NCBI GenBank assembly: GCA_038087875.1
Contig: CM075995.1
Location: forward strand, 4,652,001 to 4,716,000
DNA length: 64,000 nt
Direction of reading: 5' to 3'
Source: Malacoraja senta
Lineage: Eukaryota
Part shown: positions 7,477 to 59,767 of the stretch, one piece after another
How positions within the stretch are numbered: position 1 is the stretch's first letter
How the letters are laid out: each line of letters opens with the position of its first letter
The notes under the pieces: generated by a model
Told to the model about the DNA's origin: nothing
The model's database searches: none
What the model saw: the letters and a program-made list of their open reading frames with translations, nothing else
Made by a program: the position numbers and the translations under genes

Positions 7477-7514
7477 AGAAGGCATATCGTGGAAAAGGAT
7501 TATCAGACCGTACG

Positions 7515-8400
7515 GTGGATGTTATGACAGCAGCCTGGAGGAATAGTACCCAGAAGCAGTACATTTCCTATATAAAGAAATGGGAGGTGTTTTGTTCAGG
7601 AAAGAATATTGCATATAACACAGTAGAAGTTTCAGATGTAATAGAGTTTCTTTCAACTCTACACTATGAATTGAAATTAAGTTATAGTGCAATTAATACT
7701 GCACGAAGTGCACTCTCTGCATATTTAAGCAGTGAATCAGAACAAACTCCAATTGGAGAACATCCTTGGGTCTGTAGGTTTATGAAAGGAATTTTCAACT
7801 CTAATCCTCCCAGACCCAGGTATACAGAAATTTGGAATGTAAAAGATGTACTGATGTTCCTAAGGAGTTGGAATCCAGTTGAAACCCTGTCATTATCCAA
7901 AATTACCATGAAATTGGTTATGCTCATGGCATTAGTTTCAGCGCAGAGAGTTCAAACATTACAGAAACTCAGAATTGATAGAATGAAAGTAGGGCAAAAT
8001 GCCGTGACATTCTATGTCTATGATTTACTGAAGCAAAGTAGACCTGGGTCCACAGGATGCAAGTTGGAATTTTTAGCATTACCTACAGATTCACGACTGT
8101 GTGTAGTAACATATGTGAAATGTTACATAGAAACAACAAAAGTTTTAAGAGGCGCCGAATTAGCAATTTTTATTAGTCATAAAAAGCCTCATAAGAAAGT
8201 ATCAACACAAACAATTTCACGATGGTTGAAACAGGTGTTGAGATATTCAGGTATTGATACTGATAAATTTAAATCTCATTCCACGAGGGCGGCATCAACA
8301 TCAGCGGCCAGGGATTCAGCTTGCCAATAGACCTTATTCTCGCGGCCGCAGGATGGGCAAGTGAACAGATGTTTCACAAGTATTACCACAAGGAGATTAA
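7515..8400 (+). pseudogene. DIRS tyrosine recombinase (frameshift near 8320)
   Basis: 271-aa ORF with SAQRVQTL and KSHSTRAAS; the shifted frame continues LPIDLILAAAGWASEQMFHKYY. Confidence 0.9.
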
Positions 8401-13194: not shown

Positions 13195-15540
13195 TTTGAA
13201 GTGAAAAGGCACTGCCTGCAAATGGTTGTTTGGGGGGTTTGTGTTGAAGTGAAAAGGCACTGCCTGCAAATGGTTGTTTGGGGGGTTTGGGTTGAAGTGA
13301 AAAGGCACTGCCTGCAAATGGTTGTTTGGGGGGTTTGGGTTGAAGTGAAAAGGCACTGTCTGCAAATGGTTGTTTGGGGGGTTTGGGTTGAAGTGAAAAG
13401 GCACTGCATGCACATGGTTGTTTGGGTTGAAGTGAAAAGGCACTGCCTGCAAATGGTTTTTTGGGGGGGTTGGGTTAAAGTGAAAAGGCACTGCCTGCAA
13501 ATGGTTGTTTGGGGGGGTTGGGTTGAAGTGAAAAGGCACTGCATGCACATGGTTGTTTGGGTTGAAGTGAAAAGGCACTGCCTGCAAATGTTTTTTTGGG
13601 GGGTTTGGGTTGAAGTGAAAAGGCACTGCCTGCAAATGGTTGTTTTGGGGGGTTGGGTTGAAGTGAAAAGGCACTGCCTGCAAATGGTTGTTTGGGGGGG
13701 GGGGGGTTGGGTTGAAGTGAAATGGCACTGCCTGCAAATGGTTGTTTGGGGGGGTTGGGTTGAAGTGAAAAGGCACTGCCTGCAAATGGTTGTTTGGGGG
13801 AGTTGGGTTGAAGTGAAAAGGCATTGCCTGCAAATGGTTGTTTGGGGGGGTTGGGTTGAAGTGAAAAGGCACTGCCTGCAAATGGTTGTTTGGGGGGGTT
13901 GGGTTGACGTAAAAAGGCACTGCCTGCAAATGGTTGTTTGGGGGGGGGGGTTGAGTTGAAGTGAAAAGGCACTGCCTGCAAATGGTTGTTTGGGGGGTTT
14001 GTGTTGAAGTGAAAAGGCACTGCCTGCAAATGGTTGTTTGGGGGGTTTGGGTTGAAGTGAAAAGGCACTGCCTGCAAATGGTTGTTTGGGGGGTTTGGGT
14101 TGAAGTGAAAAGGCACTGTCTGCAAATGGTTGTTTGGGGGGTTTGGGTTGAAGTGAAAAGGCACTGCATGCACATGGTTGTTTGGGTTGAAGTGAAAAGG
14201 CACTGCCTGCAAATTGTTTTTTGGGGGGGTTGGGTTGAAGTGAAAAGGCACTGCCTGCAAATGGTTGTTTGGGGGGGTTGGGTTGAAGTGAAAAGGCACT
14301 GCATGCACATGGTTGTTTGGGTTGAAGTGAAAAGGCACTGCCTGCAAATGGTTTTTTGGGGGGGTTGGGTTGAAGTGAAAAGGCACTGCCTGCAAATGGT
14401 TGTTTTGGGGGGTTGGGTTGAAGTGAAAAGGCACTGCCTGCAAATGGTTGTTTGGGGGGGTTGGGTTGAAGTGAAAAGGCACTGCATGCACATGGTTGTT
14501 TGGGTTGAAGTGAAAAGGCACTGCCTGCAAATGGTTTTTTGGGGGGGTTGGGTTGAAGTGAAAAGGCACTGCCTGCAAATGGTTGTTTTGGGGGGTTGGG
14601 TTGAAGTGAAAAGGCACTGCCTGCAAATGGTTGTTTGGGGGGGGTTGGGTTGAAGTGAAAAGGCACTGCCTGCAAATGGTTGTTTGGGGGGGTTGGGTTG
14701 AAGTGAAAAGGCACTGCCTGCAAATGGTTGTTTGGGGGGGTTGGGTTGAAGTGAAAAGGCATTGCCTGCAAATGGTTGTTTGGGGGGGTTGGGTTGAAGT
14801 GAAAAGGCACTGCCTGCAAATGGTTGTTTGGGGGGGTTGGGTTGACGTAAAAAGGCACTGCCTGCAAATGGTTGTTTGGGGGGGGGGGTTGAGTTGAAGT
14901 GAAAAGGCACTGCCTGCAAATGGTTGTTTGGGGGGTTTGGGTTGAAGTGAAAAGGCACTGCCTGCAAATGGTTGTTTGGGGGGTTTGGGTTGAAGTGAAA
15001 AGGCACTGTCTGCAAATGGTTGTTTGGGGGGTTTGGGTTGAAGTGAAAAGGCACTGCATGCACATGGTTGTTTGGGTTGAAGTGAAAAGGCACTGCCTGC
15101 AAATGGTTTTTTGGGGGGGTTGGGTTGAAGTGAAAAGGCACTGCCTGCAAATGGTTGTTTGGGGGGGTTGGGTTGAAGTGAAAAGGCACTGCATGCACAT
15201 GGTTGTTTGGGTTGAAGTGAAAAGGCACTGCCTGCAAATGTTTTTTTGGGGGGGGTTGGGTTGAAGTGAAAAGGCACTGCCTGCAAATGGTTGCTTTGGG
15301 GGGTTGGGTTGAAGTGAAAAGGCACTGCCTGCAAATGGTTGTTTGGGGGGGGGGTTGGGTTGAAGTGAAAAGGCACTGCCTGCAAATGGTTGTTTGGGGG
15401 GTTTGGGTTGAAGTGAAAAGGCACTGCCTGCAAATGGTTGTTTGGGGGGTTTGGGTTGAAGTGAAAAGGCACTGTCTGCAAATGGTTGTTTGGAGGGTTT
15501 GGGTTGAAGTGAAAAGGCACTGCCTGCAAATGGTTGTTTG
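13195..15540. repeat. 48-bp G-rich minisatellite array with 39-bp variant units
   Basis: Unit ttgaagtgaaaaggcactgcctgcaaatggttgtttggggggtttggg; it explains the long repetitive ORFs on both strands. Confidence 0.97.
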
Positions 15541-15919
15541 TCTAAACTTGACAACTTCCTGTTTGCACTATATTGATTTTAGATAAAACGCTACCACTTA
15601 CGGCTGTGATTTTTGGCCATCTTACTCAGTCCCCCTCCGCTCATCAGGTGCAGAGGATTCATCCCATCAATGAAAAACAAAAGTGTTATTAGTGTTTAAA
15701 AAATGTTGAGAATCCTCTCCTGTCAATCACGCCATGAAGGCCACACCTTTTCCGGTGGGAGGGGGAGTGATTATAAAACCCAGAAATGTGGGTGTGGCTC
15801 AGTCTCTGCATGATGGTGGAGGGAGAGGTCATGACTGTCTGAGCTGTGAATCAACTGAACACACTGAATGTCTACTGAACTGCGAGTGTGGTGTTTTGTG
15901 TGGTTTTATGGTGGTTTTC

Positions 15920-16282
15920 ATGGTGGTTTCACCCTGCTTGAAATAGTATGAAACTGCATTTGAATGTGGTGTCGTTGCATCCTGCATGAAATGGTATGAA
16001 ACTGCATTTGAATTTGGTGGACTTGCATCCTCCTTGAAATGGTATGAAACTGCACTTGAATTTGGTGGCCTTGCACCCTGCTTGAAGTGGTAGGAAACTG
16101 AACCTGAATTTGGTGGCCTTGCACCCTGCTTGAAGTGGTATGAAACTGCACTTGAATTTTGTCACCTTGCACCCTGCTCGAAGAGGTAAGAAACTGCACT
16201 TGAATTTGGTGGCCTTGCACCCTGCTGGAATTGGTAGGAAAATGGATTTGAATTTGGTGGCCTTGCACTCTGCTTGAAATGG
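15920..16282. repeat. second, more diverged 48-bp tandem array
   Basis: Unit tggtggccttgcaccctgcttgaagtggtatgaaactgcacttgaatt, about 7 copies. Confidence 0.9.
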
Positions 16283-17055
16283 AATTTCAAGGAATAGCTG
16301 TAAGTCAACTGCCAGCCCACCAGCCGTGAGTGAGCTGCCAGCACATCAAGCTTGAGGGACTGAGCTGCCACCCCAAGAATCCATTTGGCCCACAATGTCC
16401 ATACTAGCCCTCTGGAGACCAGTAAGTCCCTGCAGCCAACAACACCCATACCAGCGCTCCAGAAAGCCCCCCCCCCCACACTGGCCACCAATATTGGAAT
16501 TGGTGGAGAGGTGGAATATTGCGTCGGGGGACAAGCCCTCCCGTGTGAACATGGGACCCAACGGGTCCCACTTAGTCTAGTAGTTAACTAAAAATGTTCT
16601 TCCCCTGTACAATCAAACCAAAATCAAATAACAGGGAGGCAAGTCTTTAGTATGTCTCAAAGAAAACACCTTAAAACACAGAAAATGCTGGAAAAGCTCG
16701 TCAGATCAGGTGGGAACTTGTTGGAAGAGAAAGGGGCAGTGTTTGGGGTCTCCGACCCTTTGTCGGAAATGAGAAAGGGAGAGATACGTTTGCTTTGTGG
16801 TAGAGAAGGGGGAGGGGGCGTTGATGTGCAGAACAAAGAGAAAACAAGATACTGCAGATGCTGAAATATTGAGTAAAACACAAAGTGTTGGAGGAACTCA
16901 GTGGGTCAGACAGATGGGTCAGGGAATGGACAGACAACGTTGTTGACTTATTAAAAACGTTTGTCAATGATTGTTGACTTTGGAAAGGGAAATTTTAGGA
17001 TCCACAAATCTGTCTTCATCAATAGGTTTGCGGGAGAGTCTGCACGTCTTACCAC

Positions 17056-17595: not shown

Positions 17596-17944
17596 ATGAC
17601 CTTGGAGCGCCAGAGACCCTGGTTCGATCCTGACTAGGGGTGCTGTCTGTACAGAGTTTGTATATTCTCCCTGTGACCATGTGTTTTTTCTCGTGGGGCT
17701 CTGGGTTCCTCCCACACTCCAAAGACATAGAGGTTTGTAGATTGATAAGTTCGGTAAAAAGTCTTTGATTATGATGGCTACTTTCCTGGGTCAGCAAGAA
17801 GGGTAAATGGAGTCAATGGTTGGGAGTCTGGTTACGTGATAAACCCGGCTAAATCTACAACGCTGCAATTTCTTGTGGTCTTAGGCAGAGCTGCTGCTAA
17901 ACTAAGCTGTGGTGTAACCAGACTAAAATTGCACGCAATACTCC

Positions 17945-18515
17945 AGGTGCAGTCTGTACAGGGCCCTGGTGAGACCGCACCTGGAGTATTGTGTGCAATT
18001 TTGGTCTCCTAATTTGAGGAAGGACATTATTGCTATTGAGAGATTGCAGTGTAGGTTCACCAGGTTAATTCCCGGGATGGCGGGACTGACGTATGATGAA
18101 AGGTCGACTGGGCTTGTATTCGCTGCAATTTAGGACGAGAGGGGATCTTACAGAAACATATATTATTCTTAGAGGATTGGACAGGGTAGGTGCAGGAAAC
18201 ATGTTCCCGATATTGGGTGAGTCCCAAACGAGGGGTCACAGTTTAAGAATAGGGGTAGGCCATTTAGTACTGAGATGAGGACAAAATTATTCACCTAGAG
18301 AGTTGTGAATCTGTGGAATTTTCTGCCACAGAAGGCAGTGTAGGCCAATTGACTGGATGTTTTCAAGAGAGAGTTAGATTTAGCTCTAAGGGCGAAAGGA
18401 ATCAAGGGATCTGGGGAAAAAGCCAGAACAGGGTACTGATTTTGGATGATCAGCCATGATCATATTGAATGGTGGTGGTGGCTTCAAGGGCCGAATGGCC
18501 TACTCCTGCACTTTT
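17945..18515 (+). mobile_element. CR1 LINE 3' fragment
   Basis: RT C-terminus (YRALVRPHLEYCVQFWSP) plus the CR1 3' UTR. Confidence 0.85.
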
Positions 18516-35280: not shown

Positions 35281-35445
35281 ATCAAGTCTGGCTGCCTGCA
35301 GTGCACAGATAAAGGATACACAGAACAACATTTAGTCAGGGCTGCCAACTCTCACGCTTTGAGCGTGAGAGTCACGCATTTCAGCCAATTCTCACGCCCT
35401 CACGCTGATGACAGAATTCTCACGCTGTCTTCAGTCCCTGCACAG

Positions 35446-35469
35446 CAACGATCCTATAGCGGAGCTTTG
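35446..35469. mobile_element. 24-bp collapsed hAT-type element, 8-bp TSD CTGCACAG
   Basis: caacgatcctatagcggagctttg between ctgcacag repeats (35438-35445, 35470-35477); the empty paralogous site is at 36322-36329. Confidence 0.8.
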
Positions 35470-35744
35470 CTGCACAGTTTGTCTCTTTGCACCACATGAC
35501 TGTGATCTGTGCGGTCTGGGGAAGCGCGTCGGTTGACGGCTGTGAGTGACGTCGCGTCTCTTCTCTCTTGGTCGGATGTGCAGCCGCCTGGTGTCAGCAG
35601 CTCTGTGCGCCGGCTGCGAGCGCTGCGCTGCCGGCCGCCCGCCGCTGCAGCCTCGCTCCCTCCTGCCCTTCAACTCACACGGCAGCGGCAGCGCCGCCAA
35701 TCCACGCTACACCGTGCCCGCAAGACTCCCCATTGGGCGGCCGG

Positions 35745-36200
35745 GGAGAGAGAGGGAGGAGAGAGAGAGGGGAGAAAGAGAGAGAGAGGGAAAGAAAAAA
35801 AGGGAGGGATGGAGGCAAAGAGAGACGGGGAGGGAATGTAGAAAGGGGATGAACGAAGGGAAGGAGAAAGGGGAGAAAGAGGGAGGGTGATGAAAGAGAG
35901 GGAGGGGGAGGAAAGAGGGTGGAGGAGAGAGGGAGGGATGGGGGAGGAAAGAGGAGGGAGGAGAGGGGGAAGGAAAGGTGTGTGTGTGTGTCCTTGTATG
36001 CGTCTCCTTGTGTGTGTGTGTGTCTCCGTGTGTGTGTGCGTGTCTCTGTGTGTGTGTCTCCCTGTGTGTGTGTGTGTCTCCCTGTGTGTGTGTGTGTGTC
36101 TCCCCGTGTGTGTGTATGTGTTTCCCCGTGTATGTGTCTCCCCGTGTGTGTGTGTGTGCGTGTGCGTGTGTCTTCCGTTGTGTATATGTCTCCCTATGTG
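35745..36200. repeat. polypurine tract followed by interrupted (GT)n microsatellite
   Basis: Low-complexity GA-rich then GT-rich sequence. Confidence 0.9.
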
Positions 36201-39200
36201 TCTGTTGTCACATCCTGGCCTTAGACTACAGGGCTGCCAACTCTCACACTTTGAGCGTGAGAGTCATGCATTTCAGCCAATTCTCACGCTGATGACAGAA
36301 TTCTCACGCTGTCTTCAGTCCCTGCACAGTTTGTCTCTTTGCGCCACATCACAGCAATCTGTGCGGTCTGGGGAAGCACGTCAGTTGGCGGCTGTGAATG
36401 ATGTCGCGTCTCTTCTCTTCTTTCTTGGTTGGATGAGCAGCCGCTGACAACATGAAGCAGCCGGAGATAGAACTAACCAGGGGACCACAATGAGGCCAAA
36501 CATCTAGGACAGGGTTCGGCAACCTACGGCACACGGGCCGAATCCGGCCCGTAACCCGAAGAACCGCGGGGTTTTTTCAATTCGTTTTCGAGCCGCACTG
36601 AGAACTGCAGCCAGTCCCTGGGACGTGAGCTGATCTGGGAACGGCAGCCAGTCCCTGGGCACACAACGCCAACTTGATCATTATGGACAAATGGGCCAGC
36701 CATGTACATGTTGTATAACTCTGACTCTATGCAGATCTGAATGGGATTAGAATTACCATTTAAGCAAAATTGCCCCCACTTTCCCCATTTTGATTCTTTA
36801 GGTTATCCCTTTGTTCAAGAAGGAACTGCAGATGCTGGAAAATCGAAGGTAGACAAAAGTGCTGGAGAAACTCAGCTGGTGCGGCAGCATCTATCCCTTT
36901 GCTCTGTTAAAAGCGTTAAAGTACTTATGAGGTAGAGTCAGGAAAGGGAACACGTTATTTTTTTTTAGTTTGCTTTAATTTGTTAGTTGATTGTTGACTG
37001 CCATAATTTCCGAAATGGTCTTAAAGTAACTTAATTGTTATAAAGCAGTAATAAGTGATTTTTGTCCAAACAATTGGAACTTGCATAAAATGTTTGCATT
37101 ATTAGCAGGGCTGCCAACTCTCACGCATTGAGCATGAGACTCACGCATTTCACAAAATTCTCACGCTCTAATGCTGATCACAAAATTTCTCACGCTCAAA
37201 CATCTGCAGGTGCTGGAAGTTCAAAATAAAGCAAAAATTGTTTTAGGGGTGAGTAAAAACCACGAGGGGAATATAAGGTGAATGCATAGTCTTTTTCCCG
37301 GGATATGTGATTCAAGCACTAGAGGGCATTGGTTTAAAGCAGGGCTGTCAAACTACCGGCCCGCCGGATGATTTAGGGGAAAAAAAAGTAGTTTAGTTTC
37401 TCCCATGCAGATGGTGTGATAGGTGAGACACGACGGCGGTGGTCCCAGCACCAACTCCCCTCCCCCTTCCCCCCTGAGGCACGGCACACACCTCCCATCC
37501 TCACCTCCAGCGGCTCTATGTCCGTCAGCCGCTCTGTTCACACCCCATGGAGTTTTAACCCTGGCCCGGAGCGAGGAGCGGACCGGGAGAGTGGGGGCGT
37601 CCGATGCCTGACCCCCGGGTCACTGACCCTCACCTCCCCCGGACCCCAGCTGGACAAGGAGCACCTGGGCCGGCCCGCATTCCCGGGAGGGGGGGGGGGG
37701 AGGGAAAAACTCCCCGGGCTTCGCTAAGTCTCCGCTCACTCCGGATGTTGTCGCCGCTTCACTGACACTGACACACTCTCATACACACACTGGCACACAC
37801 AAGGTTTAAAGGGATATGGCCAAATGTGGATAAATGGGACTAGTTTAGATGGGGCATCTTGATCTGCATGAACAAGTTGGGATGAAGGGCCTGTTTCCAT
37901 GCTGTAAGACTGTAACACATTGTAGAAAGGGTGCAATTGCTCTGGAGAGGATCCAAGGACGATTTATGAAGATGTTGGCAGGGCTGGAATTTTTTTTTCA
38001 TTTTGAAGAAAGATTTGATAACTGGTATTGTATTCTCTGCAGCAACGGTGGTGAAGAAAAAACTTAGTTGAGGTGAATAATATTATGAGAATAGGACCTG
38101 TTTTGCTTAACAAATAGTGTAGGAAGGAATTGCAGATGCTGGTTTAAACTGAAGATAGACACTAAAAACTAGAAAAACTCAGCAGGACAGGCAGTATCTC
38201 TGGAGAGAAAGAATGGGTGATGTTTCAGGTCGAGACCTTCAGCCTGAAGAGGTTGAAAACCAGCCATAAAACACAATGACTGGACATGTGTGTTATCCAA
38301 CTAAGGGCAGAAATCAGAATCATGTGTTCATCTTTATTCACGTGACACCATAATAAATATTACAGAAAAAATAATTTAATGGGGTGGCACGGTGGCGCAG
38401 CGGTAGAGTTGCTTCTTTACTACCACATGGGTTTTCTCTAGATATTCCGGTTTCTCCCATATCCGAAAGAAGTGCAGGGTTGTAGGTTAATTGGCTTCTG
38501 TAAATTGTCCCTGGCGTGATGAATGGAATTGGTGTATGATAGATTGTTGGTCGGTGTGGACTTGGTGGGCTGAAGGGCCTGTTTCCATATTAATTTTTAC
38601 ATATATATATCTTAATTTCATTGAACAATATATGATTGAATATGTGGCATTATTTTCGTCTTGTTTCTATATTCAAAGGGTAAGGTTGATTGATTTATTT
38701 GTGCAGAACAGTGATGGAAGTCCGACTTTTGCTTTCTCTGTGTTTTTCTCTATATATATGCATAACAGCATGAATATAATCTGATTTCCATACATGAATA
38801 TAGTCATTCATGTGCTGCATCTGTTGATCAAAGCCTGGCTCTATTGTGAAATGTAATTAGGAATGTAATTTAGCCTAACCTTATTCATACCTAATCCAAT
38901 TTAAAGCATAAATGTTGCATTCAAGTGTAAGTAGTCTGTGGAATTCTCTGCCTCAGAGGGCAGTGGAGGCAGGTTCTCTGGATGCTTTCAAGAGAAAGCT
39001 AGATAGGGCTCTTAAAAATAGCAGAGTCAGGGGATATGGGGAGATGGCAGGAACGGGGTACTGATTGGGGATAATCAGCCATGATCACATTGAATGGCGG
39101 GGCTGGCTCGAAGGGCCGAATGGCCTACTCCTGCACCTATTGTCTATAGTAAGTTAAAAGGCTTGCTACAGTATGCACCAATTTCAAGCTGAAAAATGCA

Positions 39201-39521
39201 AAAGCTCCCCCCCTCTGTCGCTACGCTCCCTCGCAATTTCTCACTCTCAACTCTCACCCAATGTTGGCAGCCCTGTTTAGTACAAGATAAAGTCCAATAA
39301 AAGATAGTTCAAAAGGTCTCCAGAACAGTTTTATTTTGTAAACAAGCATCTGCAGTTCATTGTTTCTACCAACTGACTCCGATAAGAGCAACATCCATAT
39401 ATGTAATTTTATTTTTGATGCATAAAAAAAAAAGGAGAGAGGCCAAGATATTCGGAAAAGGGAATTCATGCGCTTAAGTGACATGCAGCTGAAGATACTG
39501 CAACTGCAACTGCAACTGCAA

Positions 39522-46360: not shown

Positions 46361-47516
46361 CTGCATTTTAAAAAAATCAACATGTAAGAGGCATGGAGTT
46401 ATGAAACAGCTGTTAAGACTGTGCATCTGAATGTTTTATAATTTTATGGAATATTCCTCATGTTGGACACAAATTCGGATGGAGAATTTTTTGAGGGTAT
46501 TATGGAGATTTCTATCCAAACAAAACACAAGCAATTAATGAAGGAAATTCTTGTCTTGTGCGATGATCTACAATGCCCCGAGTTTTGAACTGGGAAATTA
46601 CAAGGAAGCGTGTATACGATTCGCATTTAAAGGGAAAATAATTTTTACAAGGTGCCATATTATCAATAAAAATGTTATATCAGGCAAACCACTTCCCAGA
46701 CATCCGTTCATTAAAACTAAAACTAAACATTAAAACTAATAAACTAAAAAAACAAGATAGGCTGCAGTTCTAGTTACTATCTGCTGCATTTTTACTAACA
46801 TTAGTAATATTTACATAGTAATACTATATATGCAACACCCTTTCCATTTATTTTTTAACTCAGAATTATTCTGTATCATTCCATTGAATCTGCCTTCAGT
46901 AAGTGTCAGGCATCAACTCTAATTTTAGTTGCTAAGTCACTGTGGACTCATTTAATATTTTTTTTCTCGTTTTGTTTAGAGATACAGCATGGAAACAGGC
47001 CCACCGAGTCCGCACCGACCAACAATCACCCCGTACACTAGTTCTATCCTACACGCGAGGGACAATTTACAGAAACCAATTAACCTACAAAACCTGCACA
47101 TCGTTGGAATGTGGGAGGAAACCGGAACACCCGGAGAAACCCACACGGTCACAGGGAGAACGTACAAACTGTACAGACAGCATAGCCCCCAATGTAAAGA
47201 AAGGTCTCGACCCAAAACGTCACCCATTACTTCTCTCCAGAGATGCTGCCTGTCCTGCTGAGTTACTCTAGGATTTTATGTCTATCAGTAGTCAGGATTG
47301 AACTCGGGTCTCTGGTGCTGTAAGGCAGCAAATCTACCGCTGCGGCATTGTGCTACTCGCTAACAACTAAACACACAAACGAATCGCGCTTATACTATCT
47401 ACCTGTGAGACCACTTTCAAGGACCTATGTACCTACATGCCTAGATTCCTCTGCTCCACAACACTCTCCAGGGTCTTACCATGCACTGTGTAGGTCCTCC
47501 TGAGGAAAGTCCCAAG

Positions 47517-47538
47517 CAAAGATCCTATATGATCTTTG
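47517..47538. mobile_element. 22-bp collapsed hAT-type element, 8-bp TSD GTCCCAAG
   Basis: Near-palindrome caaagatcctatatgatctttg between gtcccaag at 47509-47516 and 47539-47546. Confidence 0.85.
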
Positions 47539-48116
47539 GTCCCAAGATCCCCAAGGACTTCCCAAAATGCATCACATTGCACTTATGTGTTAAACTCCAT
47601 TAACCATTCCTCAGCCCACTTGCCAACTGATCAAGATCCTGCTGTAAGTTTTTCATAACCATCATTACTATCTACAATACCACACACACTTTGGTGTCAT
47701 ATGCAAAATTTGAACAAAGGTAAACTTCAAAGTTAACTTTTCTGACTGCAATAATTAGTTAAAAATCAAGAGTATTAACGAGATACTTTATTTTAACTTT
47801 ACTCTAAAGATACAGCGTGGATAAAGCCCACCAGGTTTGCGTCGACTAGCGATCACGCGTACACAAGCACGGTCCTACACACAAGGGACAATTTACAATT
47901 TTGACAAAGCCAATTAGCCTACAAACCTGTACATCTTTGGAGTCCGGAAGGAAACCAGAGCTCCCGGAAAAACCCCACACGGTCACAGGGACAAGGTACA
48001 AACTCTGTACAGACAGCTCCCTGAGGATCAAACCAGAGTCTCTGGTTGTGTAAAGCAGCTACATTACCGCTGCGCCACCATGCTGCCCCAATGTTCGAAA
48101 GGACAGTGGGGCTTTA

Positions 48117-48653
48117 TCTATCTATCTATCTATCTATCTTATCTATCTATAAACTATTAAAACTCTGTGTATGTGTGGATGTGTGTGTGTGTGTGTTTGT
48201 AGGTGTCAGATTTGGCCTATGATTCCTTGCTCCGCCAAAACCACATGCGAAAACTCCGCGATTATTTCCATTTCGCTAGACATTACACTTTTACATACCC
48301 TAACACATTAGATCTAGACATTTTTATGTACACATTTTTAAATAAAGTCCACCCCCCCCCCACTCACTCATTTTGTCGCCTCCTGCTGGCCAGCCACCAT
48401 AATGGCTGCTGCCGCCCGGCTCTGCTCCATAAAACGCCGACATTTTTCTTCTTTCGCTGGCGATTTTATCTGCTGCCGCCCGCCTCTCCTCCACTACCCC
48501 CCCCCCCACCCCCCCCTCCCCTGGGGCGGCTCTCTCACGCTGGCTCAAGACGCTGTCTACGCCGTCAACGACGCTGAAGCACATTCGGGAACCAGACCCC
48601 GGGGTCTGAAGCACGTTCGGGGTCCAGACCCAACGGGTCTGCTCTTGGTCTAG
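48117..48653 (+). mobile_element. non-autonomous Helitron
   Basis: Starts in (TCTA)n; hairpin CAGACCC-aac-GGGTCTG at 48625-48641; ends CTAG|T. Confidence 0.82.
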
Positions 48654-48657
48654 TATA

Positions 48658-49716
48658 TCTATAAAAGTCTCAGAGTGTGTGAGTGTGTGTGTGTGTACGC
48701 ACGCATGTGTCTTTCTACCTTTGTCAAAACGCCACGCGCTGCCGCAGAAATTTTCAGACTATTAATCACAATAACCCAGTTGACAAAATAAACTGCTTCA
48801 CTTCACATTTCATGCTATATTTCACGTTATAGCATTTTAAAAATAGCCAAAACCCAGTTTTTAAACGGCAAACGTCCTTCAACCCGCTTTGAGTGGCGTC
48901 ACAAAGGGGGGGTGGGCGGCCACCAAGGGGGAGTGGGTGGCCACCAAGGGGGAGTGGGTGGCCACCAAGGGGGAGTGGGTGGCCACCAAGGGGGAGTGGG
49001 TGGCCACCAGGGCAGAGTGGGCGGCCACCAGCTTCCAGTCACGTCAGGGGGAGGGCCGCATTAAAATTAACGTTCCGCTTTATCCGGCCAGGGCTTCTAC
49101 CCATGACACCCCGGCTGGGGTTTTACGCGGCCATCAAGGAGACATCGAGACCGCAGCGGTGATGTAGCAGCGGCGGCAGTAGGGGAAAGGAGAGGGAAAG
49201 AGAGGTGAAGGAGGGATTGGGGGAGGGGAGGAGGAGAGGGGAAAGATCCTGGGGAGGTGAGGAGGGAGCATGGGGGGGATTGGGGGAGAGGAAGGGGTAG
49301 GGAGGGTAGTTGCCACGTCTACACTCCCTCTCTTGCCCCCTCCATCTCTACCCTCCCTCCTCTCTATTTACCCTCACTCCCATCCTCTCTACCCCCCTCC
49401 CTCTCCCCCTCCCTCTCTGCCCCTCCCCCACCCTCTCTACTCCCCTTCCTCCCTACCACCCTTCCCTCTCTACCTCCCTCTCTACCCCGCCCCTCCCTCT
49501 CTACCTCCCCTCCCTCTCTAGGGATTGAAGAGGGAGGGTAAAGAGGAGGAGGAGGAGGAGGGAGTGCTGGGGGATGAGGAGAAATGAGCTGCACCTGCGC
49601 AGTTGAGAGCTATGTGTTAGTGTGGAATATTGCGTTGGGGGAATGGGTTGCGTTGGGGGAATGCGTGAGTGGTGGAATATTGCGTTGGGGGAGCAACATG
49701 TCTGCACTTGGTCTAG
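48658..49716 (+). mobile_element. second non-autonomous Helitron in tandem (contains a 21-bp minisatellite ~48905-49030)
   Basis: Start tctataaaagtct resembles the other Helitron 5' ends. gtggaatattgcgttggggga is shared with ~16512. Ends cacttggtCTAG; hairpin degraded. Confidence 0.65.
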
Positions 49717-49842
49717 CAAAATTATAAAACTCATATTCCAAATCTCTTCACTTTAAGCTTAATATTTCCTCTGTAAATATGCTACACAACGCTCAACCAA
49801 GAATGACAATAGCAACGGTTAAGGTAAATGTGTGTGCATTAC

Positions 49843-49940
49843 CACATTTGGAAATCTGCTCCATTCAGTAACCGTGGGGTAGCTTCCACGACAGAACAAG
49901 ATGGCTGAACAGCTGCTTCAAAATAGGAGTTGAGGGCTCT
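49843..49940 (-). CDS. TDP2: TDP2 coding exon 2
   Basis: Acceptor ttatttgtag|, translates RALNSYFEAAVQPSCSVVEATPRLLNGADFQM (RALNSYFE as in human TDP2), donor |gtaatg; 98 nt, phase 2. Confidence 0.92.
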
Positions 49941-50109
49941 CTACAAATAATTAACAAAAATCATTACTTCTCAATAAAATGGGTTGTATTATATAATTTA
50001 TATACATTGTAAACCAGTATATGTTATTTCTTGTGTATTCATATTATATACTGGTTAACTATACAAGTGCTTGAGGCTGTAAATATACCTCTGAACACTA
50101 ATCATCTCA

Positions 50110-52035
50110 CAATATGATACAATACGATTCTATAGAACATTATTTATCCCAGGGGGGAAATTGATCTGCCAAGGGTGGCCATGGTGGCACAGCGGTAGAG
50201 TTGCTGCCAAACATCGCTTGCAGCGGAGATTATAAGTTCTCCCCATGACCGCGTGGGTTTTCTCCGAGATTTTCGGTTTACTCTCACACTCCAAAGACAT
50301 ACAGGTATGTCGATTAATTGGCTTGGTATATGGGTAAATTGTCCCCAGTGTGTGTAGGATAGTGTTAATGTGCAGGGATCACTGGTCGGTGCGGACTCGG
50401 TGGGACGTAGGGCCTGCTTCCGGCTGTATCTCTAAATTACACTAAACAGTCATAAAACACAAGATACATGAAACATGAAATTAAAGTGATGAGTGGAAAG
50501 GATTGGGGATGTGCAAAGATTTGGGGAGGGAGGGGGTGTGGGGGGGGGGGGGAGAAGGGGAGTCAGTCTATTCTACGACTGAAGGGAGAGGAATTGTACA
50601 GTTTGATAGCCACAGGGAATAAGGATCTCCTGTGGAGTTCTGTCCTGCATCTTGGTGGAACCAGTCTATTGCTGAAGATACTCCTCAGGTTGACCAGTGC
50701 GTCATGGAGGGGATGAGCTGTATGGTCCAAGATGCTCTGCAGTTTGAGGAGCATCCTCCCCTCCAAGACCACCTCCCTTGAATCCACCTCTACCCCCAGG
50801 ACAGAGCCTGCCTTCCTGATGAGCTTGTTAATCTGTTGGCGTCCGCAGCTTTCTCCCTGCTGCCCCAGCACACGACAGCGAAGAAGATGGCACTGGGCCA
50901 CCACCAAGTCAAGTCACATTTATTTATATAGCACATTTAAAAAACAACTCTCGTTGGCCAAAGTGCTTTACATTTGTTATAAGAATAGTATAAACAAACA
51001 AACTACATACATATATACATATAGCCCTCGCTCAGAGGACGTCAAGAAAGGCTTGGGAGTATAGATACGTTTTTAGTCATGACTTAAAGGAGTCGATGGA
51101 GGGGGCAGTTCTGATGGGAAGGGGGATGCTGTTCCACAGTCTAGGAGCTGCAACCGCAAAGGCGCGGTCGCCCCTGAGCTTATGCCTAGACCGCGGGATA
51201 TTCAGCAACCCGAAGTCGGCCGATCTGAGGGACCTGGAGGTGGAGTGGTGGGTAAGAAGCCTTTTAATGTAGGTGGGGGCAAGCCCATTGAGGGCTTTGT
51301 AGACATAGAGGAGGATCTTGAAATGTATACGGAACCGCACAGGGAGCCAGTGGAGAGAGGCCAGGATCGGGGTGATGTGGTCCCTTTTTCGGTTGCCCGT
51401 CAGGAGCCTCGCTGCGGCGTTTTGGACCAGTTGCAGGCGGGACAGGGAAGATTGGCTGATGCCAGTGTAAAGGGAGCTGCAGTAATCTAGGCGGGAGGAG
51501 ATAAATGTGTGGATGATCTTTTCGAGCTCATCAAACTGGAGGAATTGTTTTATTTTAGCTATCGTCCGAAGCTGAAAGAAGCTAGCTTTTACCACGGCAT
51601 TGACTTGTTTGTCAAATTTCAGTGCCGAGTCAAATATCACGCCAAGGTTTTTGACGTGAGGTTTGAGTAGTGGGGTAAGGCTTCCAAGGCTGCCTGCTAT
51701 CATTTTGATTGAGTCCGAGGGGCCAAGAAGGATGACCTCAGACTTACTCTCGTTTAGTTGGAGGAAGTTCTGGGCCATCCAACACTTTATATCCTCAAGG
51801 CAGTGGGTAAGGTTAAGCAGATTTGATTGTTTTTTGGGCTTCAGGGGGAGATAGAGTTGTGTATCGTCTGCCAATTGGTAGAACATCTGCAGCATCTTAT
51901 TGCAGGCCTTCTAAAAAAGTATAGCCGGCTCAGAGTTCCTGGACCAGTCTAGTTTACTGTCCAGGTAAACTCCAAGGTATTTGTACTCCTTGGTAAACTG
52001 CACATCCACACCATTGATGGAGACAGGGGACAGGA
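50110..52035 (-). mobile_element. Rex1/Babar-like LINE 3' fragment split by a SINE (50172-50445) and an L2 (50925-51870)
   Basis: YKYLGVYLD, MLQMFYQ | VVA..., INKLIRKAGSVLG, PRCRTELHRRSLFPVAIKLYN. Confidence 0.75.
50925..51870 (-). mobile_element. L2-clade LINE 3' fragment
   Basis: ADDTQLY, HTFISSRLDYC, HITPILASLHWLPV; (GACTT)n tail. Confidence 0.9.
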
Positions 52036-52227
52036 ACTTATAGGTATCCCCGCTTTCACATCCCAACACTATTCTCCCACTTTAAACAACAGTCAATGAA
52101 ACCTAAATCAGGTTTAGGTTTATTATTGTCACGTGTACCGAGGTACAGTGAAAGGCTTTGCTTTTCATGCTATCCAAATGGATCAGATAATACTGCACAT
52201 ACATATAACGAAGTCAGCCTCAAGCAT

Positions 52228-55200
52228 AATAACCATATAACCATTACAGCACGGAAACAGGCCATCTCGGCCCTTCTAGTCCGTGCCGAATTTTGTTTTT
52301 TTCTCTCTTCCCCCTAGTCCCATCTACCTGCACTCAGACCATAACCCTCCATTCCTTTCCCGTCCATATACCCATCAATCTATTTTTAAAGGATAAAATC
52401 GAACCTGCCTCTACCACTTCCACTGGAAGCTCATTCCACACAGCTACCACTCTCTGAGTAAAGGCTCTGTCTTACCTGTTTGCGGTCATCGGTGGTGAAG
52501 CGCGGCTTCGCCTGTAGAGTGGACCGCACGGCAATGGCGAGAGCGCCGAGCCTATCCACGGGAGCGCCGCACGGATGCTGCGCGGGGGCCGAGTGATTCA
52601 AATACGGCGGGTCCCACGTGCTTGCGGTAAGTAAAAAAAAGGGCGGGCCGACTGCGATGACGTCGGTCCGCCGCACGTGACTCACGAGCGGCGGCTGTGG
52701 CGGCAGCCGTCCTGATCGCGGCGCTGTAGCGGTGGCTGTGCCTGTGGCCATGCCGCACACGTGCCTCACTGGCGGAGGCTGTGGCAGTGGAAGTTTGACG
52801 CACGGCGCTCGAGCCACACTGGCGGCGGCCCGTGCAGGCGGCCGTGCCGCACTCGTGCATCACTGGTGGAGGTTGTGCGGTAAGAATATAGTTTTCAACA
52901 GTGTAGGTTTTATTTTAGCACCATGCACCGCCGCACGGCCCCGGAATTGTGCGTTCTCACGAGTGCGCGGTCTATGGCGGCAGATTCTTTCCGTTTCGCC
53001 GCCAATGACCGCAGATTCGTGAGACAGGCCTTTAAAGAAGTTCCCCCTAATGTTACCCCTAAACTTCTATCTCTTAATTCTCAAGTCATGTCCCCTTGTT
53101 TGAATCCTCCCTACTCTCAATGGGAAAAGCTTATCCACGTCAACTCTGTCTAACCCGCTCATCATTTTAAAGACCTCTATCAAGTCCCCCCTTAACCTTC
53201 TGCGCTCCAAAGAATAAAGACCTAACTTGTTCAACCTTTCTCTGTAACTTAGTTGCTGAAACCCAGGCAACATTATAGTAAATCTCCTCTGTACTCTCTC
53301 TATTTTGTTGACATCCTTCCTATAATTATGCGACCAAAATTGTACTCCATACTCCAGAATTGGCCTCACCAATGCCTTGTACAATTTTAACATTACATCC
53401 CAACTTCTATATTCAATGCTCTGATTTATAAAGGCCAGCACACCAAAAGCTTTCTTTACCACCCTATCTACATGAAATTCAACCTTCAGGGAACTATGCA
53501 CAGTTATTCCTAGATCCCTCTGTTCAACTGCATTCCTCAATTCGCTACCATTTACCATGTATGTCCTATTTTGATTTGTCCTGCCAAGATGTAGCACCTC
53601 ACATTTATCAGCATTAAACTCCATCTGCCATCCTTCAGCCCACTCTTCCAAATGGCCTAAATCTCTCTGTAGACTTTGAAAATCTACTTCATTATCCACA
53701 ACACCACCTATCTTAGTATCATCTGCATACTTACTAATCCAATTTTCCACACCATCATCCAGATCATTGATATACATGACAAACAACAGTGGACCCCACA
53801 CAGACGCCTGAGGCACCCCACTAGTCACCGGCCTCCAACCTGACAAACAGCCATCCACCATTACTCTCTGGCATCTCCCATTCAGCCACTGTTGAATCCA
53901 TCTTGATACTCCACCATTAATACCCAACAATTGAATCTTCTTAACCAACCTTCCATGAAGAACCTTGTCAAAGGCCTTACTGAAGTCCATATAGACAACA
54001 TCCACTGCTTTACCCTCATCAATTTCCCTAATAACCTCTTCAAAAAATTCAATAAGATTAGTCAAACATGACCTTCCAGGCACAAATCCATGTTGACTGT
54101 TCCTAATCAGACCCTGCTTATCCAGATGCTTATATATATTATCTCTAAGTATCCTTTCCATTAATTTGCCCACAACTGACGTCAAACTAACAGGTCTATA
54201 ATTGCTAGGTTTACTCTTAGATCCCTTTTTAAACAACGGAACAACATGTGCCAATCCTCCGGCACTATTCCCGTTTCTAATGACATTTGAAATATTTCTG
54301 TCATAGCCCCTGCTATTTCTACACTAACTTCCCTCAATGTCCTAGGGAATATCCTGTCAGGACCTGGAGACTTATCCGTTTTCATATTTTTCAAAAGTGT
54401 CCGCACCTCCTCTTCATAGTTTCCATTGCTACTCTGCTTGTTTCCCTTACCTCACATAATTCAATATCCTTCTCCTTGGTGAATACCGAAGAAAAGAAAT
54501 TGTTCAATATCTCCCCCATCTCTTTTGGTTCTGCAGATAGCTGTCCACTCTGACTCTCTAATGGACCAATTTTATTCCTTGTTATCCTTTTGCTATTAAT
54601 ATAGCTGTAGAAACCCTTTGGATTTACTTTCACCTTACTTGCCAAAGCAACCTCATATCTTCTTTTAGCTTTTCTAATTTCTTTCTTAATATTCTTTTTA
54701 CATTCTTTATACTCCTCAAGCACCTCATTTACTCCATGCTGCCTATAATTATTGTAGATCTCTCTGTTTTTCCGAACCAAGTGAACAATTTCCCTTGAAA
54801 ACCATGGCTCTTTCCAATTTTTACTATTTCCTTTCAACCGAACAGGGACATAAAGATTCTGTACTCTTAAAATGTCACCTTTAAATGTCCTCCATTTCTC
54901 TTCTACATCCTTCCCATAAATCAACATGACCCAATTCACTCCTTTTAAATCCTTTTGCATCTCCTCAAAGTTAGCCTTTCTCCAATCAAAAATCTCAACC
55001 CTAGGTCCAGTTCTGACCCTCTCCATAATTATATTGAAACTAGTGGTATTGTGATCACTGGACCCGAAGTGCTCCCCAACGCATACCTCCGCCACCTGCC
55101 CTGTCTCATTTCCTAAAAGGAGGTCCAGCACTGCCCCTTCTCTAGTAGGTACCTCTATGTATTGCTGCAAAAAACTATTCTGCACACATTTTACAAACTC

Positions 55201-55720
55201 CAAACCATCCAGCCCTTTCACAGAATGTGTTACCCAGTCTATGTGTGGAAAATTGAAATCTCCCACAATCACTACCTTGTGCTTACTACTAATATCTGCT
55301 ATCTCCTTACATATTTGCTCTTCCAATTCTCGCTCCCCATTAGGCGGTCTATAATACACCCCTATAAGTGTTGCTACACCTTTCCCATTTCACAGTTACA
55401 CCCAAATAGCCTCCCTAGACGAGCCCTCTAATCTATCCTGCCAAAGCACTGCTGTAATATCTTCCTTGACAAGCAATGCAACACCCCCACCTCTTGCCCC
55501 TCCAATTCTATCACCCCTGAAGCAACGAAATCCTGGAATATTTAGTTTCCAATCACAGCCCTCCTGCAACCATCTTTCACTGATCGCCACAACATCATAC
55601 TTCCAGGTGTCAATCCAGGCTCTAAGCTCATCCACCTTTCTTACAATGCTCCTAGCATTAAAATATACACATTTAAGAAACCCACCACCACTTATTCTCT
55701 GTTTATTATCTTTTTCTTCT
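52228..55720 (-). mobile_element. young CR1 LINE ORF2 (EN+RT, few frameshifts) interrupted by a MITE
   Basis: ORFs of 141, 322, 74 and 395 aa with FNARSI, GDFN, SDH, YADD. Confidence 0.95.
52462..53032. mobile_element. CpG-rich PIF/Harbinger-like MITE, TSD TAA
   Basis: Imperfect ~40-bp TIRs; TAA at 52459-52461 and 53033-53035. The uninterrupted CR1 paralog near 20200 reads ctctgagTAAagaagttcc. Confidence 0.82.
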
Positions 55721-57865
55721 TGTCTAGAACACAAGAGAAGATACTGAGTGCAGAACATAGTCATACAGCGTGGAAACAGGCTCTTCGGCCCAACTTGCCC
55801 ACGCCAACCAACTTGCCCCATCTACACTAGTCCTACCTGCCTGTATTTTGCCCATATCTCTACAAAACTTTCCTATTCCATTTACCTGACCAAACATTTC
55901 TTAAATGTTGTGATTGTATCTGCCTCAACTACCTTCTCTGGCAGCCCGTTCTACATACCAATCACTCTTTGTGTAAAATGGTCGCCCCTCAGGTCCTTAT
56001 TAAAAATGTTCACCCCTCACCTTAAATTTATGCCCTCTGGTTCTTGATTCCCCCACTCTGGGTAAAAGACGGAGTAAAGTCAACAATCAGTTCCTTGGTT
56101 TCATTGACATCGAGCAAGATTATTGTTCTGGCACCATTCAATCAGAGGATCACTCTCCCTCCTACACTCCGACTCATCAATATTGTAATTTGTCCAACAA
56201 CGGTGGTGTCATAACAGTTCCAGAGCATAACAGTTCCAGAGTAAAAGTCCAATGATGTAGCTTGGAAAAACATGACTGCACCCTAGGACCTTTTCAAAGT
56301 CTGATAGCAAAAGGTAAGAAGTTGTTCCTGAGTCTGATGACATGTGCTATCAAAATATTAATATTTCTGCACAACAGGAGCAGGGAGAAACAGTGTTGAT
56401 CAGAATGGAAAAAGTACTTGATTACATTGGCTGCTTTCCTGAGGTAGAGGGAATTGTAGATGGAGTCAATGTTGGGGAGTCTGGTCTGTATGATGGACTG
56501 GGCTACCCCCACAACTCTGCCATTTCTTGCGATCTTGGACAGAGCTGTTCCCAAAACATGCTGTGATTCAACCCGGCAGTATGTTTTCTACGGCGCATTG
56601 CAACACTGCATCTCTCTCAGTAACTAGAACTCTAACACTCAATGCAAATACCATATTAATTAATAGCAACCCGTTAAATCATATACATTTGTGTAGATGT
56701 GCTAAATACTGCTATATTGTTACAGAATGGCCTTTGGGGAGGGCCACAATCATATCCATTGCATGCATAAAAGTTAATAGAGGAGGATGCTTTGAGGAGA
56801 GCTTTAAGGGTGACACAAGTGACTACAGATGCTGGAATCCTGAGCAAAAAAAGAAAGTGCTGGAGGAAGTCTGCTTGACCCACAGAGTTCCTCCAGCATT
56901 TTACTTTTTGTTAATAAAATGCCATGTTTAGTGATTTCAAACCAATGGTATGAACATTGAGTTCTCCAATTTCAAGTAATACCCCCTCCCACCCTTTCCC
57001 CTGCCTTCCTCCATCCCAATGTACACACATCTCCCCATCATCTACCATCACTCAGTCACCCTGCTCCTTTCCCCTCTTCCATGCACGGTGTGGGCAAGTT
57101 GGGCCGAAGGACCTATTTCCGCACTGTATCATTCTGACTCTTCTATGACTCTATCCCTCAAGTCCGACATTTCCCTTATATTCCACTCTCTTCCCCTTCT
57201 TTCTGTTCCTTTGCAGTGTTGCATACATTTCCTTAAATGGGAGATAGACACAAAGTGCTGGAGAGGCAGCATCTCCGGAGGAGGAGTTGTTGACATTTCG
57301 GGACGAGATACTTCTTCAGACCGAGTCGGGAAAAAGGGAAACGAGAGATATAGACGGTGATGTCGAGAGATATAGACAATAGACAATAGGTGCAGGAGTA
57401 GGCCATTCGGCCCTTCGAGACAGCACCGCCATTCAATGTGATCATGGCTGATCATCCCCAATCAGTACCCCGTTCCTGCCTTCTCCCCATATCCCCTGAC
57501 TCCGCTATTTTTAAGAGCCCTATCTAGCTCTCTCTTGAAAGCATCCAGAGAACCTGCCTCCACCACCCTCTGAGGCAGAGAATTCCACAGACTCACAACT
57601 CTCTGTGAGAAAAAGTGTTTCCTCATCTCCGTCTAAATGGCTTACTCCTTATTCTTAAACTGTGGCCCCTGGTTCTGGACTCCCCCAACATTGGGAACAT
57701 GTTTCCTGCATCTAGCGTGTCCAAACCCTTAACATCTAGCGTGTCCAAACCCAAATCCTCCCCTCCCCTTCATCAGCCATCTGGTTGTCTCCTCCCCTCC
57801 CCCAGCCCTCGGGCTCCTCCTCCGCCTTTTCCTTTTTTCCTTTCTTCTCCCCACCCCCTATCAGT

Positions 57866-57894
57866 CTGAAGAAGGGTTTCGGCCCGAAACGTTA
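57866..57894 (+). ncRNA. minimal hammerhead ribozyme-like core in Penelope-type repeat
   Basis: CTGAAGA-a-GGGT ttcg GCCC-GAAAC-GTT; variants recur many times in the window. Confidence 0.5.
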
Positions 57895-58183
57895 CCTATT
57901 TCCTTCGCTCCATAGATGCTGCTGCACCCGCTGAGTTTCTCCAGCATTTTTGTGTACCTTAACAATCTTATATGTTTCAATGAGATTCGCTCTCATCCTT
58001 CTAAACTCCAGAGTGTACAAGCCCAGCTGCTCCATTCTCTCAGTATATGACAGTCCCGCCATCCCGGGAATTAACCTTGAAAACCTACACTGCACTCCCT
58101 CAATAGCGAGAATGTCCTTCCTCAAATTAGGGGACCAAAACTACACACAATACTCCAGGTGTGGTCTCACTAGGGCTCTGTAC

Positions 58184-58567
58184 CAAAGATCCTATAGCAA
58201 GCAAGATAGATCACTCCTTCTAAATGCAATGGGCTGACGTGTAGTACGCAACGGAGCGGAATGCGGAACTTTTTTTCATCCATTTCAGTAACCCGACCCG
58301 ATCCGACTCGCAGTGTAATCAACGTTGCGGGGAACAGTTTTTGTTAATAAATTATAATTCTGAAAATGAGGAGGAGGTTTTTTACCAAATAACTTTTATT
58401 TTTACGAGGATGTTTCCGTAACCAGCGCTAGTTATCTTTGCTCCGCTATGGGATCTTTGGTGCGGAGACGGAAGCCGGTTACGGAAATGGGGCCGAAAAT
58501 TACCCATGAATCTGCCCATGACGTCTTTTTCGTCGAGTGATCTATCTTGCTTGCTATAGGATCTATG
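58184..58567. mobile_element. hAT-type MITE, 384 bp, 8-bp TSD CTCTGTAC
   Basis: TIR caaagatcctatagcaagcaagatagatcactc / gagtgatctatcttgcttgctataggatctatg; TSD at 58176-58183 and 58568-58575. Confidence 0.92.
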
Positions 58568-59767
58568 CTCTGTACAACTGCAGAAGGACCTCTTTGCTCC
58601 TATATTCGATTCCTCTTGTTATAAAGGCCAACATGCCATTCCCTTTCTTCACTGCCTGCTGTACCTGCATGCGTACTTTCATAGACTGATGAACAAGGAC
58701 CCTCAGATCCCGTTGTACTTCCCCTTTTCCCAACTTGACGCCATTTAGATAGTTATCTGCCTTCCTGTTATTGCTACCACAGTGGATAACTTCACATTTA
58801 CCCGCATTAAACTTCATCTGCCATGCATCTTCCCACACCACCAACCTGTCCAAGTCACCCTGCATTCTCATAGCATCCTCCTCACAGTTCACACTGCCAC
58901 CCAGCTTTGTGTCATCTGCAAATTTGCTAATGTTACTTTGAACATTATAGACTTTCCTTCATTAGCCAAGACACAGACCATGAAAGCAGGGTGGTTATGC
59001 CAGAATCGTATGCAATAACAAATGAGCTATAGTTTGAGTACTACATACCACGCCTATCCATGGCCTATGCATTTCCTCCAGAGATCCTGCCTGACCCATA
59101 CAGTTACTCCAGCACTTTCTGTACTGTTCTACGCTCCCTCTCCATTACGCCCCACAGATGCTGCCTGACCCACTGAGGCTTTCCGTTTGAATTTTTTTTT
59201 TCTCCAGACCTCAGCATTCGAGGAATTGATCGGATAGATGCACTGAGTCACTTGCCCAGAGTAGGTGAATCGAGCACCAAAGCACATGGTTTAAGGTGAA
59301 GGGGAAAAGATTTAATAGGAATCTGAGGTGTAACTTTTTCCACACAAAGGGTGGTGGGTTTATGGAACAAGCTGCCAGAGGAGGTAGTTGAGGCAGGGAC
59401 TATCCCAACATTTAAGAAAGTTAGACTGGTACATGGATAGGAAAGGTTTGGAGGGATATGGGCCAAAAGCAGGTAGCGTAGCTGGGACATGTTGGCGGGT
59501 GTGGGCAAGTTGGGCCGAAGGGCCTGTTTCCACATTGTATCACTCTATGACTATATTATACCTCCACCATGCATGAATGCTTCAAAATCAAGTCAAGTCG
59601 AGATTTATTACTATATGCTCAAGCATGAGCAAGTTACAGAGAAATATAGAAAATAGGTGCAGGAATAGGCCATTCGGCCCTTCGAGCCAACACTGCCATT
59701 CAATATAATTAGTACCCCATTCCTGTTTTTTCCCCATATCCTTTGATTCCGCTAGCCAAACAAGGTC

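Follow-up and report, generated by a model that had tools for sequence, protein, structure and literature searches.

The closest known counterpart of what we describe here was made in a fly laboratory. P transposase cuts at the 3′ end of the element and, on the other strand, 17 nt inside the terminal inverted repeat (TIR) (PMC7776569), so the donor ends retain 17-nt 3′ tails. Repair junctions from Drosophila P{wa} (PMC2895639, Table 1) carry an 8-bp target-site duplication (TSD) and both element tips, each of 17 nt or less, joined at microhomology, bluntly or through templated filler. Zebrafish THAP9, excising in fly cells, gives larger flanking deletions, and its stagger length is not given in the portion of PMC10983969 available to us. 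The hAT element Ds excises by way of hairpins on the flanking DNA, and element bases occur in 0 of the 17 donor footprints in Table 1 of PMC1978519. TSDs are 8 bp long for P and 7 bp for Galileo and 1360 (PMC3698922), with the consensus GTANTAC in Galileo (PMC4168063); Repbase also includes hAT families with 7-bp TSDs (PMC4455052).

Our locus comes from the skate Malacoraja senta. The window, meaning the whole stretch of DNA that we analysed, is 64,000 nucleotides long. Positions 47517–47538 read CAAAGATCCTATATGATCTTTG, a 22-bp near-palindrome with a copy of GTCCCAAG on either side. The initial annotation had reported this 22-mer with its perfect 8-bp TSD, and direct reading of the sequence bears it out. 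The site is laid out as follows:

47395 to 47710, plus strand: decayed LINE (CR1-type) fragment, host of the 22-mer, from paralogue comparison
47509 to 47516, plus strand: left copy of the 8-bp TSD GTCCCAAG, from direct sequence reading
47517 to 47538, unstranded: 22-bp remnant consisting of two TIR tips only, from tip comparison
47539 to 47546, plus strand: right copy of the 8-bp TSD GTCCCAAG, from direct sequence reading
47547 to 47555, plus strand: extra 9 nt beyond the right TSD, from local repeat comparison

The 22-mer is made up of 13 nt of left tip and 14 nt of right tip with one mismatch, 5 nt (CTATA) being common to both. That mismatch could have arisen by substitution afterwards or come from a variant terminus; the right tip of one metagenome locus (L052) has the same variant. 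Where paralogous CR1 copies have 16 nt, this copy has 63 (47499–47561). Subtracting the 22-mer and one TSD leaves a surplus of about 17 nt, and direct and inverted local copies are present. On the right flank, nt 3–9 of the tip recur at 47544–47550 and the end of the TSD at 47550–47555; the extra 9 nt are possibly the debris of a templated insertion. Four runs over 46400–48400 all have depth at 47529, in tables so swamped by repeats that orthologue and paralogue are inseparable. One contig of X1 lacks two single bases of the 22-mer, with orthologue and paralogue again not separable, and no full, collapsed or empty orthologous state of the site showed in these four runs.

The tips belong to a family of which the window holds one full element, a 384-bp MITE. 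That the 22-mer consists of two TSD-flanked TIR tips of this family was proposed at the outset, and the comparison supports it. The features of the MITE are these:

58176 to 58183, plus strand: left 8-bp TSD of the MITE, from direct sequence reading
58184 to 58567, unstranded: non-coding MITE, 384 bp, same family as the 22-mer, with TIRs at 58184–58216 and 58535–58567
58280 to 58293, unstranded: left arm of a subterminal inverted repeat, 14 bp with 1 mismatch, partner at 58477–58490
58445 to 58459, minus strand: third TIR tip, within the MITE, from a sister subfamily, resembling the tip at 35446
58477 to 58490, unstranded: right arm of the subterminal inverted repeat, partner at 58280–58293
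58568 to 58575, plus strand: right 8-bp TSD of the MITE, from direct sequence reading

The element stands as the initial annotation drew it, with TIRs of 33 bp (97% complementary) and an exact 8-bp TSD, CTCTGTAC. Paralogous CR1 copies within the window have the target once, so the MITE is a true insertion. The arms of the subterminal inverted repeat (MITE nt 97–110 and 294–307) lie 78–97 bp in, and there is one copy only. The fold has a long terminal stem (z −5.6). No match, and no transposase or THAP domain, came from a Pfam scan of the 12 MITE reading frames, and an Rfam search of 46500–59000 gave 0 matches. Its sequence suggests that the MITE combines two subfamilies as a mosaic. On either side of the internal tip stand the two halves of an 11-bp inverted pair (MITE nt 230–240 and 294–304). 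The tip motif AAGAT is repeated within the TIRs at about nt 20–25, both in the window (58184–58216) and in a metagenome subfamily (L017). The MITE has ATGGG at nt 46 counted from its left end and at nt 49 and 61 counted from its right; these motifs may be related to the internal THAP-binding sites of the P superfamily, which are unequally spaced from the two TIRs.

There is a second remnant in the window, and its empty counterpart lies close by:

35438 to 35445, plus strand: left 8-bp TSD CTGCACAG of the 24-bp remnant, from direct sequence reading
35446 to 35469, unstranded: second remnant, 24 bp, from its TSD and an empty paralogous site
35470 to 35477, plus strand: right 8-bp TSD CTGCACAG of the 24-bp remnant, from direct sequence reading
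36322 to 36329, plus strand: empty paralogous site with a single CTGCACAG, from a 32-nt gap (24 + 8) against the 35.4-kb copy

By eye, the 24-mer has about 20 nt of left tip and 5 nt of right tip with a 1-nt overlap, and its junction, unlike that of the 22-mer, is not at CTATAG. The tally for the window is two remnants with different junctions to one full element (2 to 1). The tips at the three sites belong to different subfamilies, and for that reason we rejected the idea of one local-hopping trail linking them. All three sites lie in one gene:

22572 to 60576, minus strand: host gene TDP2, seven coding exons, from an exon 1 match and exon mapping

Exon 1 of this gene matches skate TDP2 proteins (three matches: Rhinoraja, Leucoraja and Amblyraja). 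The MITE sits in intron 1, the 22-mer in intron 2 and the 24-mer in intron 4, each within an older repeat; we imply no effect of the three copies on TDP2. Five CAGGG-type ends, which we take to be hAT-like, are clustered at 35337–39275 in intron 4, and one of them hosts the 24-bp remnant. These five ends, which belong to other repeats, have given no tip-only remnants.

How often would chance make such a site? We scanned the window blind to family, asking for an exact 8-bp repeat around 10–800 bp with CA..TG ends and 5-bp inverted ends (at most one mismatch), leaving out the tandem array at 13.0–16.6 kb and low-complexity 8-mers. Three sites came back, all with the tip of the 22-mer/MITE family. 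In order-4 Markov simulations (n = 150, 64 kb), sites of 10–60 bp averaged 0.11 (1 of the 150 had at least two), and demanding an 8-bp inverted end left 0 sites of that size in the 150. Over the full 10–800 bp the loose criterion yields 1.0 site per simulation, so the case for the MITE rests on its 33-bp TIR and not on the family-blind scan. The 14-nt tip itself, allowing two mismatches, occurs 6 times against 0.62 expected.

Relatives turned up in metagenome contigs. The pattern we used was a 13-nt left tip, 0–30 free bases and an 8-nt right tip, which misses any remnant longer than 51 bp and any whose tips are very short, the 24-mer in the window among them. It found 111 loci; one without a full flank and 12 duplicates were dropped, two host-repeat groups (12 and 15 loci) entered as one locus apiece, and 73 independent loci were left. 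Twelve of these have an 8-bp TSD and 17 a 7-bp TSD (at most one mismatch); the other 44 take in chance matches, decayed sites and a locus (L076) with the one exact 9-bp TSD. The 92 distinct flank pairs include 18 repeats of 7 bp (0.14 expected) and 12 of 8 bp (0.04 expected), again with at most one mismatch, and those of 4–6 bp are at chance level. The recurrence of TSD-flanked tip remnants far beyond chance, which the initial annotation had proposed to look for genome-wide, is seen in the window and in the metagenome contigs alike. In viral contigs, our control, the pattern matched five times, none with a TSD and four with the same sequence.

The 29 TSD-flanked remnants come from 11 assemblies and are all distinct. 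Their lengths are distributed evenly between 22 and 49 bp, as far as the 51-bp maximum of the pattern, and they are joined at microhomology or through filler. Three are near-perfect palindromes of 46–49 bp; lopsided joins (23 + 11, 20 + 9, and 20 + 12 with filler) also occur among the loci. In the best-sampled subfamily, with 12 TSD-flanked remnants, tips run from 9 to 24 nt. Eight of the 12 overlap by 1–5 nt (the 5-nt case has a mismatch and is strictly blunt) and four contain filler, of 1, 1, 4 and 12 nt, the longest of which copies the opposite tip. Of 14 GGCC-type remnants, five stop at nt 24 and none has unexplained sequence beyond it, as read against a reference that is itself only 24 nt long with a pattern that could take a tip as long as 43 nt; those five tips hint at a stagger of more than 17 nt. 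TSD length tracks the bases that follow the shared tip, the best-sampled subfamily accounting for 11 of 12 8-bp sites and 1 of 18 7-bp sites (Fisher test, p 2.5e-6), a split that we offer as descriptive because we drew the classes with the data already in view and a single assembly supplies 12 of the 29 loci. In the 7-bp TSDs, T at position 2 goes with A at position 6 in 12 of 17.

The loci with the family tip hold pieces of LINE reverse transcriptase, tetraspanin and DUF4517, and no repeat beyond the 22-mer is common to them and the window; they therefore seem to be DNA of animals not related to skates. The canonical CTATAG-joined 22-mer does recur, as the initial annotation had expected, at two unrelated sites, L051 with a near-perfect 7-bp TSD and L037 with a decayed one. 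Where copies of a remnant are repeated, their flanks are repeated with them, which points to passive carriage inside larger repeats. One host-repeat group (L005, L044, L010, L028, L013, L046, L068 and five more) has a single remnant in a larger repeat, in 51-, 45- and 37-bp versions; the other, of 15 loci, carries mostly 30-bp remnants, also passively. The 37-bp version is a deletion variant of the 51-bp remnant in the same host repeat, so slippage also acts. End-pattern scans for an autonomous element gave 0 and 1 (chance) hits in viral collections and 0 and 0 in prokaryote genomes, and Pfam found no transposase or THAP domain in 53 selected ORFs from the window and the loci.

To which superfamily does the family belong? 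The initial annotation said hAT, and that label is not supported. An 8-bp TSD is common to hAT and P, the TSDs of relatives that share the tip are 7 bp long, and the published donor sites of Ds are without element sequence (PMC1978519). If the remnants are direct excision products, their donor sites are not of the hAT style; both tips and both TSD copies are kept. The window sites do resemble hAT MITEs in their 8-bp TSDs with T2 and A7 (3 of 3), a likeness that is not exclusive to hAT. The terminal motif of hAT, YARNG (PMC3014272), is given for P as well (PMC2820524). It fits six of the seven ends, and the right end of the MITE (CATAG) breaks it. We leave aside the motif CANRG for P ends, which the tip CAACG would not fit.

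The likeness to the P superfamily (P, Galileo, 1360 and the MITE BuT5; PMC7776569) is broader, taking in CA..TG ends, a TIR of about 30 bp and subterminal inverted repeats. TSD lengths are those of the superfamily, 8 bp at 3 of 3 window sites and 8 or 7 bp at 12 and 17 loci. The MITE has a 33-bp TIR and a 14-bp subterminal repeat where Drosophila P has a 31-bp TIR and 11-bp repeats about 100 bp in. The 7-bp TSDs with T2 and A6 resemble the GTANTAC of Galileo (PMC4168063), and the occasional 9-bp TSD of BuT5 has its counterpart in the 9-bp locus. Among vertebrates, zebrafish Pdre2/THAP9 (PMC10983969) and medaka Izanagi (PMC2820524) are alike in having non-autonomous members, TIRs that start with CA and 8-bp TSDs. 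Their TIRs are 13 bp (Pdre2) and 27 bp (Izanagi, with a THAP remnant), whereas the skate MITE is without a Pfam match, and the portions of those two papers available to us do not describe tip-only remnants. The terminus, CAAAGATCYTATAG, is unlike that of Drosophila P or Pdre2, and one tip is common to the 7-bp and 8-bp subfamilies. None of this evidence (TSD, TIR or subterminal repeat) is decisive. From the sequence features together, membership of the MITE family in the P superfamily is likely, and hAT is unsupported.

We think it probable that the 22-mer is the footprint left at a donor site when a member of a P-superfamily-like cut-and-paste family excised, and that it is not itself mobile. 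All 29 TSD-flanked remnants differ and one alone is the CTATAG 22-mer, which argues that the 22-mer is immobile and that collapse at CTATAG is just one of many kinds of junction. The sequence of events would run as follows. A longer member of the family would insert and make the 8-bp TSD, an event that empty paralogous sites document for the MITE and the 24-mer and that the TSD implies for the 22-mer. A transposase would then cleave at the element boundary on one strand and inside each TIR on the other, and single-stranded TIR tips would stay on both chromosome ends. End joining, to judge from the shapes of the junctions, would trim and join the tips, often at microhomology and sometimes with filler. 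Because the two 3′ tails are identical and CTATAG is self-complementary, they could anneal there, and the 22-mer would be one favoured product. The product would have the order TSD, tip, tip, TSD; it would be unable to move and would differ from site to site. Some tips may be longer by a few bases where gap-repair synthesis began and was aborted. As no transposase was found, we infer both the P-superfamily membership and the staggered cut, and hold the two together to be a reasonably good reading of the family.

The junctions of P{wa} (PMC2895639) have just this form, and palindromic products are common among them. They differ from ours in coming from a laboratory assay with tips of 17 nt or less, and P transposase made them; the remnants here are natural and known without a transposase, the tips in their relatives reach at least 24 nt, and the terminus is unrelated. 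Tips beyond 17 nt speak against a staggered cut of exactly the Drosophila P kind, and a continuum of internal deletions would also give the even spread of 22–49 bp. These two points would also suit a second account. An element of any superfamily, hAT included, could excise flush, and copying from the sister chromatid could stop after 5–25 nt per side before joining, so that the remnants would be no more than the shortest of the usual internal-deletion derivatives. This account does equally well with the unique junctions, the microhomology and the filler, takes in tips longer than 17 nt, and draws on a route, synthesis-dependent strand annealing (SDSA) and then end joining, that is more frequent than any other outcome in wild-type flies (PMC2895639). 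The account predicts many lopsided products with one long tip, however, and 0 of the 14 GGCC-type remnants go past nt 24 (of a 24-nt reference). Nor does it explain the excess of tip-only remnants over full copies for this family and not for CAGGG-type ends, a comparison of small numbers. Ds donor sites are without element sequence in 17 of 17 cases (PMC1978519, Table 1). We regard it as rather unlikely, and as the rival to be taken most seriously.

The initial annotation had favoured a family that collapses on itself. Here the paired TIRs would form a hairpin, and a replication slip or a nuclease cut between short repeats such as CTATAG would delete the inside with no transposase at all; the ‘nearly precise excision’ of Tn10 is the analogue. 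The long terminal stem of the MITE suits this, as do the three near-perfect palindromic remnants, the recurrence of the CTATAG product at L051 and L037 and the 51-bp remnant that became a 37-bp variant in one host repeat, where later shortening does happen. The CTATAG deletion product was said to be one mismatch from the 22-mer. That product requires CAAAG at both element ends; the right end of the MITE is GATCTATG, so its collapse gives two mismatches. As a mechanism, collapse at CTATAG accounts for only 1 of the 29 TSD-flanked remnants, and the 24-mer in the window is joined elsewhere. Filler and lopsided joins (20 + 5 in the window and the three among the loci) indicate break repair, and other inverted-repeat elements in the window have left no such remnants, which makes self-collapse improbable. 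It had also been suggested that such 22-mers are themselves mobile, a minimal element mobilised in trans. The 22-mer has both ends and a perfect TSD, and its canonical form stands at two unrelated metagenome sites; yet that recurring form is equally the predicted microhomology product. Uniform, near-identical copies at unrelated sites are not what we see, with 29 of 29 distinct and the two window remnants different as well, and repeated copies share their flanks, as passive carriage would have it. The 22-mer is also without the subterminal repeat of the MITE, and P transposase requires internal sites beyond the TIR (PMC7776569). Mobility is a very poor bet. Still harder to credit is that the 47.5-kb site was a single complex break repair with templated copies, its ‘TSD’ a repair duplication and no element ever present. 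The surplus of about 17 nt over the paralogous CR1 copies and the direct and inverted local copies would fit, and no empty 47.5-kb site was seen in the four repeat-swamped runs, in which orthologue and paralogue are inseparable. Against it, the duplication is exactly 8 bp and adjoins both tips, which also holds for the two window sites whose empty paralogues are proven, and both tips match a family terminus.

Back to the excision footprint, then, and what would follow from it. Tip-only remnants between intact TSDs would be a diagnostic of P-type staggered cleavage that needs sequence only, and orphan MITEs otherwise called hAT from an 8-bp TSD alone could be classified. Past excisions, which normally leave nothing recognisable, could be counted, and the length at which tips cease would tell how widely a vertebrate P-like transposase staggers its cuts. 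More tentatively, as a possibility that we would not press, there may be an undescribed P-like lineage, with one terminal sequence in a skate and in unrelated animals, that cuts about 24–26 nt inside its TIRs, against 17 nt in Drosophila P, and whose unannotated tip-only scars may outnumber its intact copies. Were that so, a histogram of scar lengths would read out the cleavage geometry of a vertebrate P/THAP9-type enzyme together with the end-joining choices of the germline. Palindromic scars of 20–50 bp probably escape repeat annotation and could pass for regulatory palindromes. This type of scar is already known from fly experiments; what is apparently new is its natural occurrence, from a P-like family undescribed so far. 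Our search of the literature for the terminal sequence and for skate P elements, with Repbase, Dfam and most subscription journals outside its scope, brought up nothing relevant, and the family may already be catalogued in Repbase or Dfam.

The window has other features of interest. A broken element at 6432–8330, interrupted by an N gap, has tyrosine-recombinase and weak Dam-like Pfam matches and, by eye, RT/RNase H-like frames; on these sequence matches we read it as a putative remnant of a DIRS-type retroelement. A 306-bp element at 8659–8964 has 80-bp inverted ends that are 98% complementary. Long tandem arrays at 13081–16587 give rise to open frames in several phases. At 17920–18007 a piece of CR1 is folded back head to head, perfectly, with 44-bp arms and no spacer.
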